64,000 nucleotides of DNA from the sequence record PZ445524.1. One strand, 5' to 3'. A program made the position numbers and the translations under genes. Below, one piece after another: positions 4,485 through 16,520 of this stretch. This DNA is from a phage. The notes under the pieces are model-generated. The model made no database searches. It was given only the letters and a program-made list of their open reading frames with translations, and was not told the origin of the DNA. How positions within the stretch are numbered: the first letter of the stretch is position 1; every line of letters starts with the position of its first letter.

Positions 4485-6072
<1,588 letters not shown>

Positions 6073-9237: not shown

Positions 9238-11502
9238 TCATAATTTACAGGATGAACAATCTTCAGCTTTTGGAGTTTCTATTTCATAATCATCAGTACC
9301 AGAACCATCACGGGTATTATGATAATAGAAATTTTTAATGCCATAATACCATCCGTATAGCATGTCATCAATCATTATTGACATTGGAACCTTTCCCTTT
9401 GGAAAAATCTGCGGGTCATAGTATGTATTCGCTGAAGCTGATTGACATACCCATTTCAGCATAATAGCTACCTGCGTAAGATAAGGTTTATTACCTTTCT
9501 TAGCTAATTTCCATGTATAATCATATAGGTCTATGTTATGCTCAATATTGGGCACGACTTGATTAAAGGAGCCCTCTTTTGATTCTTTAACAGAGACTGG
9601 TCCACGTGGAGGCTCGATGCCGTTTGTACTGTTAGAAACTTGGGAAGATGACTCACATGGCATAAGTGCTGATAATGTGCTATTACGGATGCCAAATAGC
9701 TTAAGGTCTTCCCGCAGCGACGACCAGTCACAAACGTATTTTGGAGCTGCGATTTGGTCAATCTTTTTATTGTACCAGTCGATAGGTAATTCGCCTCGAG
9801 ACCAACGAGTGTCTGAATAATATTCGCAAGGTCCTTTTTCTTTGGCGAGCTTAATGGATGCTTTAATGAGTCCATACTGTAATCTCTCAAATAGTTCATG
9901 TGTTAAATCGTTAGCATCTTCATAAGAAGCAAAGTTACTTGCCAGCCAAGCTGCATAGTTAGTAACACCTACACCAAGGTTACGACGCTTTTTAGCTTTT
10001 TCTGCTTCAGGAACTGGATATCCTTGGTAATCCAACAGATTATCAAGAGCACGAACTTGAACTTCTGCCAATTCATTAATTTTATCTTGGTCTTGCCAGT
10101 CAAAATTATCCAGTACGAAGGCAGAGAGAGTACACAACCCAATTTCAGCATCAGGACTATTCACATCATTTGTTGGAATAGCAATTTCACAGCACAAGTT
10201 ACTCTGACGAATAGGTGCCTTTTCACGAATAAACGGAGTATAGTTATTCGTATTATCAATGAACTGTACATAAATCCTTGCTGTTCCTGAACGTTCAGTC
10301 ATGAGCAATTCAAATAGTTCACGGGCTTTAATACGCTTTTTACGAATATTAGGGTCTTTTTCTGCTGCTTCGTATAATTCACGGAAACGGTCTTGGTCTT
10401 TAAAATAAGAATAATAAAGCTCTCCACCCATTTCATGCGGACTGAACAAAGTAATGTAATCGTTCTTTCCAAAACGTTCCATCATCAAATCATTCAGTTG
10501 AACGCCATAATCCATATGACGAATGCGGTTTTCTTCTACGCCTTTGTTATTTTTCAAAACGAGAAGATTTTCAACTTCCAAATGCCAAATAGGATAATAA
10601 GCAGTAGCAGCGCCGCCACGAATTCCACCCTGTGAGCATGATTTAACTGCAGTCTGAAAATGTTTCCAAAAAGGAATAACACCGGTATGGCGTACTTCAC
10701 CCATGCCAATCTTAGAACCTTCGGCACGAATCATACCAACGTTAATACCAATTCCAGCGCGTTTAGAGATATATTCAACAATTGAAGCGGAAGCCTTATT
10801 GATAGACTTCAGCGAATCACCTGCCTCAATAACAACACATGAACTAAACTGTCGAGTCGGAGTACGACAACCAGCCATAATAGGAGTTGGCAATGAAATC
10901 TGTCGAGTAGATACTGCTTCATAAAAACGAATAACATGTTTTAATCTATCAACAGGTTCATCTTGATGCAATGCCATTCCAATAGTCATAAATGCAAACT
11001 GTGGAGTTTCATAAATTTGACCAGTGGTTTTATCTTTAACTAGATATTTTTCTTTTAATTGCATCGCCCCGGAATAAGTAAATTCCATATCCCGCTCGTG
11101 CTTAATTTTTGATTCTAAAAATGTAATTTCTTCTGCTGAATATTTTGACAATAATTCAGGGTCATATTTACCTTCATTTACACAGTAAGAAATATGGTCA
11201 ATAAATGAACGTGGTTCATACTGCCCATAAACATGCTTACGAAGAGCGAACATTAAACAGCGTGCAGCTACATATTGATAATCAGGTTCTTCAACCGAAA
11301 TAGAATTCGCAGCAGCCTTAATGACAATAGTCTGAATATCATCAGTTGTCATTCCATCACGGAGATAAGATTTAATATTTTCATATAATTCATAAGGATC
11401 TACTGATGTTCCTTCAGCTGCCCAAGATAAAACTTTAATAATTTTTTGTGGGTCAAAGCTCTGAGAAACACCACTACTTTTGATAACATTAATTAATTGC
11501 AT
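9238..11502 (-). CDS. nrdA: ribonucleotide reductase large subunit
   Basis: 754 aa; class Ia RNR alpha with ATP-cone N-terminus and active-site NLCCEI; SD GAGGA. Confidence 0.95.
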   Translation of the reverse strand: MQLINVIKSSGVSQSFDPQKIIKVLSWAAEGTSVDPYELYENIKSYLRDGMTTDDIQTIVIKAAANSISVEEPDYQYVAARCLMFALRKHVYGQYEPRSFIDHISYCVNEGKYDPELLSKYSAEEITFLESKIKHERDMEFTYSGAMQLKEKYLVKDKTTGQIYETPQFAFMTIGMALHQDEPVDRLKHVIRFYEAVSTRQISLPTPIMAGCRTPTRQFSSCVVIEAGDSLKSINKASASIVEYISKRAGIGINVGMIRAEGSKIGMGEVRHTGVIPFWKHFQTAVKSCSQGGIRGGAATAYYPIWHLEVENLLVLKNNKGVEENRIRHMDYGVQLNDLMMERFGKNDYITLFSPHEMGGELYYSYFKDQDRFRELYEAAEKDPNIRKKRIKARELFELLMTERSGTARIYVQFIDNTNNYTPFIREKAPIRQSNLCCEIAIPTNDVNSPDAEIGLCTLSAFVLDNFDWQDQDKINELAEVQVRALDNLLDYQGYPVPEAEKAKKRRNLGVGVTNYAAWLASNFASYEDANDLTHELFERLQYGLIKASIKLAKEKGPCEYYSDTRWSRGELPIDWYNKKIDQIAAPKYVCDWSSLREDLKLFGIRNSTLSALMPCESSSQVSNSTNGIEPPRGPVSVKESKEGSFNQVVPNIEHNIDLYDYTWKLAKKGNKPYLTQVAIMLKWVCQSASANTYYDPQIFPKGKVPMSIMIDDMLYGWYYGIKNFYYHNTRDGSGTDDYEIETPKAEDCSSCKL

Positions 11503-11819
11503 AAGTCCTCAACTTGAAAATCGTCTTTAAACAATCGGTTAACTATATGAGCTATTATATCACCATGACACGGCTTTGGTTTACATGTGCATCCTAGCCT
11601 CATTCCACGTAAAGGCTCTAAATGTGCTTTAGTTATTTCTCCGGATTTAATTCGACGTATAAAATCTTTTTTGAATAATTCAATGGCAGCCGGGAGGCTG
11701 CCAGCATCTTTACCGACGTAATTTCCCCAAAATGTACCGCGGTGAATATTAACATCAAAGTCGGATTTGTATTTATTCACTACCCGGCATAGACGGCCCA
11801 CGCTGGAATAATTCGTCAT
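11493..11819 (-). CDS. hypothetical protein (108 aa)
   Basis: ATG at 11817-11819; contains [11 protein letters not shown]; overlaps nrdA start. Confidence 0.5.
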
Positions 11820-12036
11820 ATTGTTTTTCCGTTAATACAGTAATATCGTAGTAACAGTCAGAAGAAGTTTTAACTGTGGAAATTTTATTATCAAAATACT
11901 CACGAGTCATTTTATGAGTATAGTATTTTTTACCATAAATGGTAATAGGCTGTTCTGGTCCTGGAACTTCTAACTCGCTCGGGTTAGGAAGTGTAAAAAG
12001 AACTACACCAGAAGTATCTTTAAATCGTAAAATCAT
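11773..12036 (-). CDS. hypothetical protein (87 aa)
   Basis: ATG with GAGGA SD immediately downstream of td exon 2. Confidence 0.5.
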
Positions 12037-12055
12037 ATATCCTCACAATTAATAA

Positions 12056-13932
12056 TTACACCGCCATCTTTCCTTTAATAGGAGGGTGTGATACATAGTT
12101 GTTAAGAACGAAATCTTTAGGCCTAAGTTTAAGAACATATTTTAATTGTTCTTTAGTAGAAAGATATCGGAATTTATAAGGTAGACCACTTATTACCAGC
12201 TCACAAAGCTCTTTAGGTTCACGCCTCAAAATTTCTTTACATTGTTCTACGTGATTCATATAGATATGAGTATTACCACCAGAAAATATCAAATCCCCTG
12301 GAATAAGATTACACATCTTAGCTACAATATGAACTAACGTAGCATATGATGCAATATTAAACGGTAGCATTATGTTCAGATAAGGTCGTTAATCTTACCC
12401 CGGAATTATATCCAGCTGCATGTCACCATGCAGAGCAGACTATATCTCCAACTTGTTAAAGCAAGTTGTCTATCGTTTCGAGTCACTTGACCCTACTCCC
12501 CAAAGGGATAGTCGTTAGGCATTTATGTAGAACCAATTCCATTTATCAGATTTTACACGATAAGTAACTAATCCAGACGAAATTTTAAAATGTCTAGCTG
12601 CATCTGCTGCACATTCAAAAATAACCCCATCACATGAAATCTTTTTAATATTACTAGGCTTTTTACCTTTCATCTTTTCTGATATTTTAGATTTAGTTAT
12701 GTCTGAATGCTTATGATTAAAGAATGAATTATTTTCACCTGAACGATTTCTGCATTTACTACAAGTATAAGCAGAAGTTTGTATGCGAACACCGCACTTA
12801 CAAAACTTATGGGTTTCTGGATTCCAACGCCCATTTTTACTTCCGGGTTTACTGTAAAGAGCTTTCCGACCATCAGGTCCAAGTTTAAGCATCTTAGCTT
12901 TAACAGTTTTAGAACGTTTCTTAATAATTTCTTCTTTTAATGGATGCGTAGAACATGTATCACCAAACGTTGCATCAGCAATATTGTATCCATTAATTTT
13001 AGAATTAAGCTCTTTAATCCAAAAATTTTCTCGTTCAATAATCAAATCTTTCTCATATGGAATTTCTTCCAAAATAGAACATTCAAACACATTACCGTGT
13101 TTGTTAAAAGACCTCTGAAGTTTTATAGAAGAATGGCATCCTTTTTCTAAATCTTTAAAATGCCTCTTCCATCTCTTTTCAAAATCTTTAGCACTTCCTA
13201 CATATACTTTATTGTTTAAAGTATTTTTAATCTGATAAATTCCGCTTTTCATAAATACCTCTTTGAATATAGAAGTATTTATTAAAGGGCAGTCCTACAA
13301 TTTAGCACGGGATTGTCTACTAGAGAGTTTCCCCGTTTAGATAGATTACAAGTATAAGTCACCTTATACTCAGGCCTCAATTAACCCAAGAAAACATCTA
13401 CCGAACGTTGATACCACTGCAAATCCAAATAGCCATTACGAACATTAAATTGATAAAACATATGACAAGGCGGTAATGCCATCTGCTTGAGTTCAGCTGG
13501 ATTCCATGCTGAAACAATTTGACGCCTATCATTTGGCAGTTTTTTAATACGATCAATAACTTCTATAATTTGGTCTACACCACCAAAATCACGCCACTGT
13601 TTTCCATAAATTGGACCAAGTTCACCGCTATGGTATCCTAAATCTTTTGCTTGATTTTCGTAATTTTCATCCCAAACTGTTTTGCCTTGGATTAACGAAT
13701 CATGCTGAATTAATCGTAAATCATTGACATTTGTGCTTCCTGATAAAAACCATATTAACTCGGCAATGCAAGCTTTCCAGGCGAGCTTTTTAGTTGTTAC
13801 TGCAGGAAAACCTTTGGTTAAATCCCAACGCAATTTAGTACCGAACAAAGCAATTGTTCCTGTGCCTGTTCGGTCATCGGTTTCATAACCATTTTCAAAA
13901 ATGTCTTTAATTAAATCTTGGTATTGTTTCAT
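12056..13932 (-). CDS. td: thymidylate synthase, interrupted by a group I intron (exon1 13384..13932, exon2 12056..12367)
   Basis: Exon 1 ends YQRSVDVFLG, exon 2 begins LPFNIASY; spliced product 286 aa. Confidence 0.9.
12368..13383 (-). mobile_element. group I intron in td (1016 nt) carrying I-TevI
   Basis: Exon 1 ends in U (GGU), intron ends AUG with terminal G before CUA CCG; length equals the known T4 td intron. Confidence 0.85.
12515..13252 (-). CDS. intron-encoded GIY-YIG homing endonuclease I-TevI
   Basis: 245 aa; N-terminal GIYQIKNTLNNKVYVGSAKDFEKRWKRH, zinc finger CKCGVRIQTSAYTCSKC, C-terminal DNA-binding region. Confidence 0.9.
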   Translation of the reverse strand: MKSGIYQIKNTLNNKVYVGSAKDFEKRWKRHFKDLEKGCHSSIKLQRSFNKHGNVFECSILEEIPYEKDLIIERENFWIKELNSKINGYNIADATFGDTCSTHPLKEEIIKKRSKTVKAKMLKLGPDGRKALYSKPGSKNGRWNPETHKFCKCGVRIQTSAYTCSKCRNRSGENNSFFNHKHSDITKSKISEKMKGKKPSNIKKISCDGVIFECAADAARHFKISSGLVTYRVKSDKWNWFYINA

Positions 13933-13977
13933 TTAGTACCTTATATAAATTATAATACATTTTATGAAGCTAAATAA

Positions 13978-14337
13978 TCAATACGGTTTAGCATCAAATT
14001 TTCTCTCAATTTCAGGTGTGAAATATAATTCTTTACCACGTTTGGAAAAGCGACCAATAATATGATAATTATTCTCATCAAACGTGATATTACCAATATC
14101 CATAGCTTTCAACCAAATATCGATATTTCTATCCAGCTTTATGTCAAAATTCCAATACGGAGAACTATTACCGAAAATACTGCAAGCGGATTCAGTGAAA
14201 CAACTGCTATAAATCTTGTCTTTAGGAACTACTAATTGATAGACACCTTTAATAAACTGAGGACCTTGCCATTTTGGCTGTTTCGCGTCTTTTTCTAATA
14301 GAATAGGGTAATAATTAAAATTCATATTTTCAGCCAC
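13978..14337 (-). CDS. hypothetical protein (116-119 aa) between frd and td
   Basis: 360-nt ORF in AT-rich DNA; GTG at 14335-14337 or ATG at 14323-14325; no strong SD; no recognisable motif. Confidence 0.5.
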   Translation of the reverse strand: MAENMNFNYYPILLEKDAKQPKWQGPQFIKGVYQLVVPKDKIYSSCFTESACSIFGNSSPYWNFDIKLDRNIDIWLKAMDIGNITFDENNYHIIGRFSKRGKELYFTPEIERKFDAKPY

Positions 14338-14345
14338 GCGTTATT

Positions 14346-15172
<827 letters not shown>

Positions 15173-15182
15173 ATTATTTTCC

Positions 15183-15426
15183 TTAAACAGACTTTTTCAC
15201 AATTTTCCAATCAGCTTTAAACTGCTCGACGTCAGAATGGTAAATCCAAAATCCTGCGCTTTCTCCGTCTTCATAAAGAGGACATCCATCGCATTCATCT
15301 TCCCATCCCATATCGCGTAAAAGATGTTCAGCTTTTTCAACAAGTTCAGAATCTTTACCGATGATATTAAAATACCATTTACCTCTAACTTCCGAATCTT
15401 TGATGCTCTGACGTTGTAATCTCATT
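15183..15426 (-). CDS. hypothetical protein (80 aa)
   Basis: Start moved to ATG 15424-15426 with GAGGAG SD; the longer ORF-track N-terminus would include the promoter. Confidence 0.5.
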
Positions 15427-15449
15427 TTATTCTCCTCAGTAGTTGATAA

Positions 15450-15483
15450 GGCTATAGTATCATTACCATAGCCTGTTGTAAAC
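15450..15483 (-). promoter_or_regulatory. early promoter
   Basis: - strand GTTTAC ... TACTAT upstream of ORF 15183..15426. Confidence 0.5.
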
Positions 15484-15485
15484 AT

Positions 15486-15713
15486 TTATTTTTGGATTAA
15501 GCCCATATAAAATTTAGCATCTTCAGGATACATGCCATCACAATACTCATTGGTCATAAAACTAATAAGGTCTTCAAGAGGACCTTGGACTTCAATTTGA
15601 ATACTAAAGAATTGGGTGTCTTTAATGTAAGCCATACTCAAAGAAGGATAACGATTGCGGATAACTTCGTAAGTGTATTCAAAATCAACAATATCAATAT
15701 TAACCTTAGCCAT
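15486..15713 (-). CDS. hypothetical protein (75 aa), paralog of 16197..16424
   Basis: [13 protein letters not shown]...NEYCDGM aligns with [13 protein letters not shown]...NEYCDGM; SD GAGGAAA. Confidence 0.55.
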
Positions 15714-15739
15714 TTTATTTTCCTCATGTAGTTGATAGG

Positions 15740-15772
15740 GTAATAGTATCACACTACTACCCTACTGTAAAC
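15740..15772 (-). promoter_or_regulatory. early promoter
   Basis: - strand GTTTAC ... GATACTAT upstream of ORF 15486..15713. Confidence 0.5.
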
Positions 15773-16152
15773 TACTTTTTGAAAGTTTTTCGCAAAAGTT
15801 CAATGATTTCGTCTACATTGTTTTCGTCTACAATGCAGTGAATTTTTGTTACGCCAGAAACCAGGTCTTTGACTTCATCTTTTTCAGAAGTCGGTTCTTT
15901 ATACTCACGAAAACAATGAAATTCGTCTTCGCAAATTTCTAAAAGTCTATCTTTGAGGTAAAAATGCTTTCCATTTGCGCATTCAATGTGTTTTACTGCT
16001 TTATATCCATTAGCGACGGAAACTTCTTTAACTTCAAACCATCCGCCATTATCTCGAATGGCTTTAACTATTGATGAATTAGAACGTGGGCTATAATTAA
16101 TAAATGTATCAATAAGTCTTGGAACAAGTTCATACTTTTTACCGGTATACAT
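15772..16152 (-). CDS. hypothetical protein (126 aa)
   Basis: ATG with GAGGAAA SD; hairpin 16167-16186 upstream. Confidence 0.55.
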   Translation of the reverse strand: MYTGKKYELVPRLIDTFINYSPRSNSSIVKAIRDNGGWFEVKEVSVANGYKAVKHIECANGKHFYLKDRLLEICEDEFHCFREYKEPTSEKDEVKDLVSGVTKIHCIVDENNVDEIIELLRKTFKK

Positions 16153-16196
16153 TACGTTTTCCTCATTTTAATAGGGGCTTGATAGCCCCTTGATAA

Positions 16197-16424
16197 TTAC
16201 TGTTCAATAAATCCTGTGTAAAATTCTACATCTTCAGCATCCATACCGTCGCAGTATTCATTAACCATAAACTGTTTAAGACGATTTAAAGGACCTTCAA
16301 TAACAACTGAAACATTACAATTAGGATCATTTAGTGCGCTTATGATACTAAGTTCAGGATAACGATTACGAATAATTTCTTCAATATATTCAAAATCAAC
16401 AACATCAATATCAATTTTAGCCAT
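16197..16424 (-). CDS. hypothetical protein (75 aa), paralog of 15486..15713
   Basis: ATG with AGAGGAAA SD; own early promoter upstream. Confidence 0.55.
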
Positions 16425-16467
16425 ATTATTTTCCTCTTTAATTATCAGCAGTATTGCCGATAGTTGT

Positions 16468-16497
16468 ATATTACCACAGTATGCTTTGGTTGTAAAC
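16468..16497 (-). promoter_or_regulatory. early promoter
   Basis: - strand GTTTAC ... TAATAT upstream of ORF 16197..16424, just after the gene 32 terminator. Confidence 0.5.
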
Positions 16498-16520
16498 AGT
16501 TTTGTGAAAAATTTTTAAAA

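Follow-up and report, generated by a model that had tools for sequence, protein, structure and literature searches.

The stretch of DNA analyzed here, referred to as the window, comprises 64,000 nucleotides of a phage genome (sequence record PZ445524.1), and the subject of the analysis is X, a small open reading frame (ORF) on its minus strand that lies between frd, the gene for dihydrofolate reductase (DHFR), and td, the gene for thymidylate synthase. Comparison with related phages indicates that X is a genuine protein-coding gene, and that it is an ancestral, vertically inherited part of a frd-X-(Y)-td string in the T4-like phages of Enterobacterales, Y being a paralogue that directly follows X in many genera. 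The alignments likewise indicate that the arrangement in T4, from which X is missing, is derived and is the product of a 417-bp deletion between 9-bp direct repeats. These gene-level conclusions are held with near certainty; the function proposed below for the protein is tentative.

The open frame occupies positions 13978-14337 (minus strand), between the frd stop (14346) and the td start (13932), and specifies 119 amino acids if read from a GTG codon, exactly as an initial annotation of the window had described it. That annotation considered the frame long for AT-rich DNA; the length is real, but first-order Markov sequences with the composition of the window (35% G+C) contain by chance about 3.2 open frames of 119 or more codons per 64 kb, and length alone is therefore weak evidence. 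X is considered coding because of its conservation, not because of the length of the ORF. Between the window and phage T2, the X sequences differ at 14 DNA positions, all 14 of which are synonymous third-position changes, such that the two proteins are 100% identical. Among eight Tequatrovirus copies of X, the variable sites number 9, 6 and 39 at the first, second and third codon positions, respectively. When compared with the copies of phages F2 and NHEP36, which are the most diverged in Tequatrovirus, X showed 27-30 synonymous and 9-10 nonsynonymous differences, corresponding to a ratio of nonsynonymous to synonymous substitution rates (dN/dS) of about 0.05; for metagenomic relatives, which are 63-66% identical, the ratio was 0.11-0.15.

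The likely coding sequence of X starts at the ATG at 14325 and runs to 13978 (minus strand), specifying a protein of 115 amino acids (MNFNYYP...AKPY) followed by a TGA stop; the predicted product has a mass of 13.6 kDa and an isoelectric point of 8.5, with 16 lysines and arginines against 14 aspartates and glutamates. Of the two starts that had been considered initially, GTG or an internal ATG, it is the ATG that corresponds to the start annotated in the GenBank relatives. The in-frame upstream extension, GTG GCT GAA AAT (14326-14337, minus strand), is probably untranslated; in NHEP36 an in-frame TAA stands directly 5' of the X ATG, and the GTG extension is therefore not conserved. Inspection of the sequence before the GTG and the ATG revealed no good Shine-Dalgarno sequence for either, in agreement with the initial description, and the frd-X spacer (14326-14345, minus strand) consists of 20 nt without one.

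The junction itself varies between phages. In the window, the reading frame of frd continues past its TGA for seven further codons (N N A W L K I; 14323-14348, minus strand), and the second TGA of this frame overlaps the X start codon as ATGA. In phage F2, one extra A lets frd read through and overlap X by 11 nt, and in NHEP36 a segment of about 24 nt is missing at the 3' end of frd, which brings frd and X into a direct ATGA overlap. An X start codon that overlaps the frd stop or directly adjoins it is found in NHEP36, L011, ZX14, KP17 and Melville, and in most of the homologues from other genera as well. These alignments indicate that the 3' end of frd, and with it the coupling of frd to X, is evolutionarily labile. 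As a separate observation, NHEP36 and the window are 59% identical in frd, 94% in X and 90% in td, and the frd/X junction of NHEP36 looks like a recombination (mosaic) boundary.

Homologues of X were found directly 3' of frd in Kanagawavirus, Mosugukvirus, Jiaodavirus, Gelderlandvirus, Moonvirus, Winklervirus, Tegunavirus and a Klebsiella phage without genus assignment, and with the same placement in phages of Proteus, Morganella, Providencia, Serratia, Erwinia and Edwardsiella. Two metagenome contigs and all of 15 IMG/VR loci likewise hold an X homologue in the frd-td slot. The homologues occupying this slot in other genera are 26-66% identical to X, and the identity to the window copy declines (93, 63, 46, 41, 37, 35, 33, 32 and 26%) alongside that of frd (86-43%) and td (90-73%), X diverging faster than td in this comparison. 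The tblastn matches of the distant members all adjoin a dihydrofolate reductase gene and belong to Straboviridae. Overall, the family was detected only in T4-like phages of Enterobacterales and always in the order frd-X-(Y)-td; since the same slot is occupied in many genera in this order, X is regarded as ancestral and not as a mobile insertion. Judged by the slot and by the pairwise identities of X, frd and td, its distribution is not of the sporadic kind that is incongruent with the flanks. The initial annotation had suggested a mobile or accessory insertion, and the accessory part of this suggestion stands, as T4 does without X, but the insertion part is contradicted by the homologues that fill this slot in at least eight further genera and in all 15 IMG/VR loci.

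Comparison of the frd-td interval of the window with that of T4 and other T4-like phages identified T4 as the deleted form, rather than the window as one with an insertion. In the T4 locus (L010), frd and td share 4 nt (the end of td is at 5113, the beginning of frd at 5110), which confirms the adjacency and overlap that the initial annotation had described for T4. The T4 sequence equals that of the window minus 417 bp between two copies of the 9-bp repeat TAAATGAAA, of which copy 1 (14344-14352, minus strand) spans the frd stop codon and copy 2 (13927-13935, minus strand) spans the td start codon; T4 retains one copy, the other being gone together with the intervening sequence. In NHEP36, the same 8-9 bp are the natural start contexts of X, in its ATGA overlap with frd, and of td. 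Recombination or slippage between the repeats would have placed the td ATG where the X ATG had been, and this replacement would account for the ATGA overlap of frd and td in T4. The T4-type junction was found in only 35 records, many of them T4 itself, T4T, RB55 and RB59, as against 359-363 that carry X; this search employed a 100-nt probe across the T4 junction with E values up to 1e-28, so that more diverged junctions could escape it. T4 is thus a poor reference for the frd-td locus, its overlap being a rare, derived state. The prospect that the frame would prove to be a known annotated T4 gene was not borne out literally, as T4 lacks it, yet annotations of it exist for T2 and the majority of Tequatrovirus genomes.

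Two other explanations of the ORF itself were weighed against this history. The lack of a Shine-Dalgarno sequence, the ambiguous start and the chance occurrence of some three such frames per 64 kb would all suit a chance ORF or a decaying pseudogene in a spacer, but the entirely synonymous T2 differences, the dN/dS of 0.05 and the codon-position bias of the variable sites argue to the contrary, and a family that retains invariant residues down to 26% identity and yields a confident AlphaFold model is equally hard to reconcile with it; the selection analysis rules this explanation out, and its probability is considered practically nil. The other explanation is that X is a mobile insertion, namely the remnant or a small form of a free-standing homing endonuclease, in keeping with the product name 'putative homing endonuclease' in the BASEL-collection records AugustSocin, AndreasVesalius and AlbertHofmann, and with the 9-bp direct repeats at the ends of the segment absent in T4, which can be read as a target-site duplication. 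The repeats, however, are in NHEP36 plain start-codon contexts of X and td, and the names given in other records ('dihydrofolate reductase', 'glucose-1-phosphate adenylyltransferase') are inconsistent with this one and with each other. Moreover, X contains no GIY-YIG, HNH, LAGLIDADG or other nuclease domain at E values up to 10: no Pfam family was found for X at this threshold, none was common to 16 relatives, and NCBIfam gave no match, whereas the I-TevI homing endonuclease in the same window, which served as positive control, scored strongly (GIY-YIG, E = 2e-18). At 115 amino acids the protein is also too small, and it occupies the same slot across many genera with a divergence parallel to that of its flanks. 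The fixed slot, this divergence and the missing nuclease domain effectively exclude a mobile origin, to which we assign a very slight probability.

Although X had been called unassigned, it is already known as an annotation, being a conserved hypothetical gene in T2, RB14, RB51, AR1 and hundreds more genomes (for example, RB32ORF229c) and a member of PHROG 1928, a family listed with function unknown. The match to this family had an E value of 9.5e-36, with residues 8-115 of the 119-residue ORF aligned to positions 2-125 of the 126 in the profile, and 57 of 57 aligned relatives matched the same PHROG. Matches to the X region were found in 519 phage records, 359 of which span the whole ORF. By tblastn, 363 copies of X at 90% identity or more were retrieved from Tequatrovirus records, including those of T2, RB14, RB51, AR1, phiD1 and the BASEL phages, and 226 further copies at less than 60% identity in other genera; the exact protein occurs on 341 contigs, where it is always named 'hypothetical protein'. 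Deviant product names in GenBank are 'putative homing endonuclease', 'putative dihydrofolate reductase' and 'putative glucose-1-phosphate adenylyltransferase', and all three are unsupported. For the dihydrofolate reductase label, which is that of the ESCO58 record, X has no Pfam match at E values up to 10, including DHFR_1 and the R67-type enzyme, whereas frd matches DHFR_1 at E = 4.4e-19. X, Y and distant members of the family, when scanned against Pfam, NCBIfam and PADLOC, gave no matches or only single chance ones, which agrees with the initial impression that X has no recognizable motif. A profile search of 1.84 billion representative proteins yielded only 51 matches; four were long proteins and the remainder were small (95-148 amino acids), and the two long ones tested (SprB and CarboxypepD_reg repeats) proved to be repeat artefacts. 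No paralogue of X was found elsewhere in the window or in the gene 32-nrdA region of T4, and our literature search, which included the fHe-Yen9-01 toxicity screens and an accessory-gene screen preprint, retrieved no paper on X.

In many genera a second ORF of 113-124 amino acids directly follows X, and multiple alignment revealed it to be a paralogue, here called Y, at loci L003, L004, L006-L009, L011 and L012. X and Y have the motifs QKKW, HG(I/L)Y and GRFxKxG..(I/L)xF in common, with invariant positions at Q16, W19, G27, G91, F93, K95 and G97. Y is found neither in the window nor in the T2-type phages examined; most genera have it, Tequatrovirus and Jiaodavirus being without it. The history that we infer would begin with an ancestral frd-X-Y-td string, from which Y would have been lost in Tequatrovirus (and Jiaodavirus), and X in addition in the T4 lineage. 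Two of the loci, L006 and L011, have a further ORF of 68-69 amino acids between Y and td.

The structure of the X protein was predicted by AlphaFold, with a mean predicted local distance difference test score (pLDDT) of 78.5 when an alignment of 29 sequences was supplied, and of 92.5, with a predicted template-modeling score of 0.85, when 57 sequences were used. The model consists of strands at residues 6-12, 27-34, 48-50 and 62-64, a helix at 68-77, and strands at 80-82, 86-96 and 99-104. This order, as read from the DSSP assignment, is compatible with that of the oligonucleotide/oligosaccharide-binding (OB) fold, a five-stranded barrel with a helix between strands 3 and 4. On this basis X appears to be a soluble single-domain beta-barrel with one helix and an OB-like strand order, although no significant structural superposition on known OB domains was obtained. 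Residues conserved in at least 70% of the 57 members are L9, Q16, W19, H26, G27, Y29, G78, G91, F93, K95, G97, F102 and P104, position 26 being lysine in this phage. They comprise turn glycines, core hydrophobic residues and a few aromatic, basic and amide side chains: Q16 and W19 fall in the loop between beta1 and beta2, H/K26 and Y29 lie where beta2 begins, and the last hairpin contains K95. None of the conserved positions among the 57 members is an aspartate, glutamate, cysteine or serine of the kind that might hint at catalysis.

Neither sequence nor fold comparison placed the model beside a protein of solved structure. A profile search of the PDB sequences gave only noise (E of about 1) and no solved-structure sequence match, and Foldseek against BFVD returned only uncharacterized relatives and weak partial matches to Aeromonas phage proteins. 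The latter are A0A2H4YFY2 of Aeromonas phage Ah1 and E1A2K1 of phiAS5, of 157-161 amino acids, matched with probabilities of 0.99-1.0 and a TM score of 0.41 normalized to the query; judging from these fold matches, they may be distant relatives of X outside the enterobacterial phages. A search of the last 50 kb of phiAS5 with a hidden Markov model of the family detected no X-family member. The X model is therefore a confident one, yet without a significant solved neighbor.

Because of this model and the conservation pattern, we tentatively read X as a non-enzymatic binding protein made together with DHFR, and rate this reading as possible, though somewhat short of an even chance. The canonical face of an OB fold would hold a nucleic acid or nucleotide-like ligand, which is the most natural guess for X, although the partner could also be a protein. 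X would be transcribed together with frd and td before replication, on an early mRNA shared with DHFR. The overlapping frd stop and X start would, in most genera, couple translation of X to frd termination; in the window, the 20-nt gap without a Shine-Dalgarno sequence suggests re-initiation. X would then modulate the early nucleotide-precursor module in an accessory, dispensable capacity, and would be neither an enzyme nor a mobile element. Several points weigh against such a role. The placement of the conserved residues on one face was reasoned from secondary structure, not from coordinates, and X is not strongly basic, its charged residues being nearly balanced. Gene order is generally conserved in T4-like phages, and the adjacency to frd and td is thus weak evidence for a shared function. 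In addition, the NHEP36 copy of X, at 94% identity, accompanies an frd allele of only 59% identity, which disfavors a tight co-adaptation with DHFR.

Among the other functions that were considered, a role in host takeover or anti-defense, in which X, like many other small early proteins of T-even phages, would bind and neutralize a host protein such as a nucleotide-depleting or other immune factor, is somewhat unlikely but deserves attention; the location in the nucleotide-metabolism cluster would then be historical and not functional. X is small, lies in the early region and is dispensable (T4 and some 35 relatives lack it), the copy number varies between X alone, X plus Y and none, X evolves faster than td, it has no enzyme motif, and its family occurs only in phages that infect a single host order, all of which would fit such a role. 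On the other hand, typical counter-defense genes are far less conserved and less fixed in position than X, as judged by its 100% identity across many isolates and its dN/dS of 0.05; nor was there any match to a known anti-defense structure in the PDB, any sequence or structural similarity to a characterized inhibitor or sponge, or any screen in the literature found to report X. The invariant position between frd and td, and the overlapping stop and start codons in most genera that imply co-production with DHFR, could also point to a stoichiometric accessory subunit, X (and Y) binding DHFR and/or thymidylate synthase and, for example, bridging or tethering them in a complex that synthesizes deoxynucleoside triphosphates. 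We regard this as improbable, considering that T4 runs the same pathway without X, that nearly the same X pairs with the divergent frd allele of NHEP36, and that gene order is conserved genome-wide in T4-like phages in any case. A still bolder proposal, which we consider a long shot, is that X and Y constitute a structurally new OB-like binding module, an overlooked third component of a DHFR-X-Y-thymidylate synthase string for thymidylate synthesis. If true, X and Y would, for example, tether the enzymes to nucleic acid or to the replisome, or control the translation of their mRNA, and sixty years of genetics would have passed over the module because T4, the reference phage, carries the microhomology deletion. 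The annotation itself is little changed, X having already been called in T2, RB14 and hundreds more genomes; nonetheless, a tightly conserved family that is wedged between DHFR and thymidylate synthase, often as a tandem pair, makes X a well-defined target for assigning a function to another conserved T-even gene.

The flanking regions offered several further observations. The 5' neighbor of X is frd, encoding a dihydrofolate reductase of 193 amino acids (14346-14927, minus strand), and the 3' neighbor is exon 1 of td (13381-13932, minus strand), followed by a group I intron that carries I-TevI. Intron and endonuclease lie in the region 12515-13380 (minus strand), with I-TevI itself at 12515-13252 (minus strand) and matching GIY-YIG, zinc-finger and DNA-binding domains. 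In the T2 record PV648363, td is an uninterrupted gene of 861 nt; the window is therefore of T2 type at frd-X but intron-plus like T4. An Rfam scan of 11500-16500 at E values up to 0.1 detected no RNA family, including no group I intron match, and when td exon 1 and frd of the window were compared with their T4 and T2 counterparts, 50 nt at a time, no clear tract boundary indicative of I-TevI co-conversion was apparent. The X-td spacer (13933-13977, minus strand) is 45 nt long and contains promoter-like elements in addition to the td Shine-Dalgarno sequence, AAGG, a good one (13939-13942, minus strand). The elements are a sigma-70-like match, TTGATT-N18-TATTAT (13981-13952, minus strand), with a putative promoter function, and a MotA-box-like AGCTTCA (13965-13971, minus strand) followed by TATAAT/TAATTT, the TATAAT being at 13949-13954 (minus strand). 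About 30 nt of this spacer are absent in F2 and NHEP36, and the motifs suggest that in T2-type phages it may supply td with an additional promoter of the early or middle class.

On the other side of frd, an ORF of 81 amino acids without a Pfam match (14927-15172, minus strand) ends at the frd start, with which it shares one base (14927). It is located between frd and frd.1 (DUF5417, 15183-15485), where T4 has a 71-nt gap, and is a second gene at this locus that is absent from T4; it is named hypothetical in AugustSocin and ESCO58. Further 5' of frd.1 are an FRD3-family ORF (15486-15713) and then an FRD2-family ORF (15772-16152), both on the minus strand, whereas T4 in the same direction has frd.2 and then frd.3, indicating that the frd.x genes are rearranged or duplicated; L011 has two FRD2 copies.

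Comparison with known systems places X as follows. It is identical to the T2 and RB14 proteins and to those of many other isolates, and does not differ from its family, PHROG 1928, whose members RB32ORF229c (RB14/RB51), ar1_242 (AR1), g240 (Yersinia phage phiD1) and the T2 hypothetical protein hold the same position between frd and td. The paralogue Y, represented by gp192 of Pectobacterium phage PM2, Melville_235 and gp199 of Edwardsiella phage PEi20, has the motifs and length class of X and stands in tandem directly 3' of it, but in Y about 20 additional residues (ALVIxGxxPTIxxYKRNPxxY) follow the invariant tryptophan, and the C-terminal tail of X is lacking. Like X, the frd.1 (DUF5417), frd.2, frd.3, nrdA.1 and nrdA.2 genes are small, conserved genes of the early region packed among those of nucleotide metabolism; X, however, is unrelated to them in sequence and is missing from T4, for which reason it has no T4 gene name. 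The seg and mob genes and I-TevI, the latter only 0.7 kb from X, are likewise optional ORFs between conserved T4 genes, but X differs in lacking a nuclease domain, in being a third to half as large, and in its vertical inheritance within a fixed slot, as opposed to a sporadic occurrence. For the predicted fold, the closest known systems are the OB-fold nucleic-acid-binding domains, namely HIN, Teb1/RPA, Cdc13, the N-domain of RecO, and S1.
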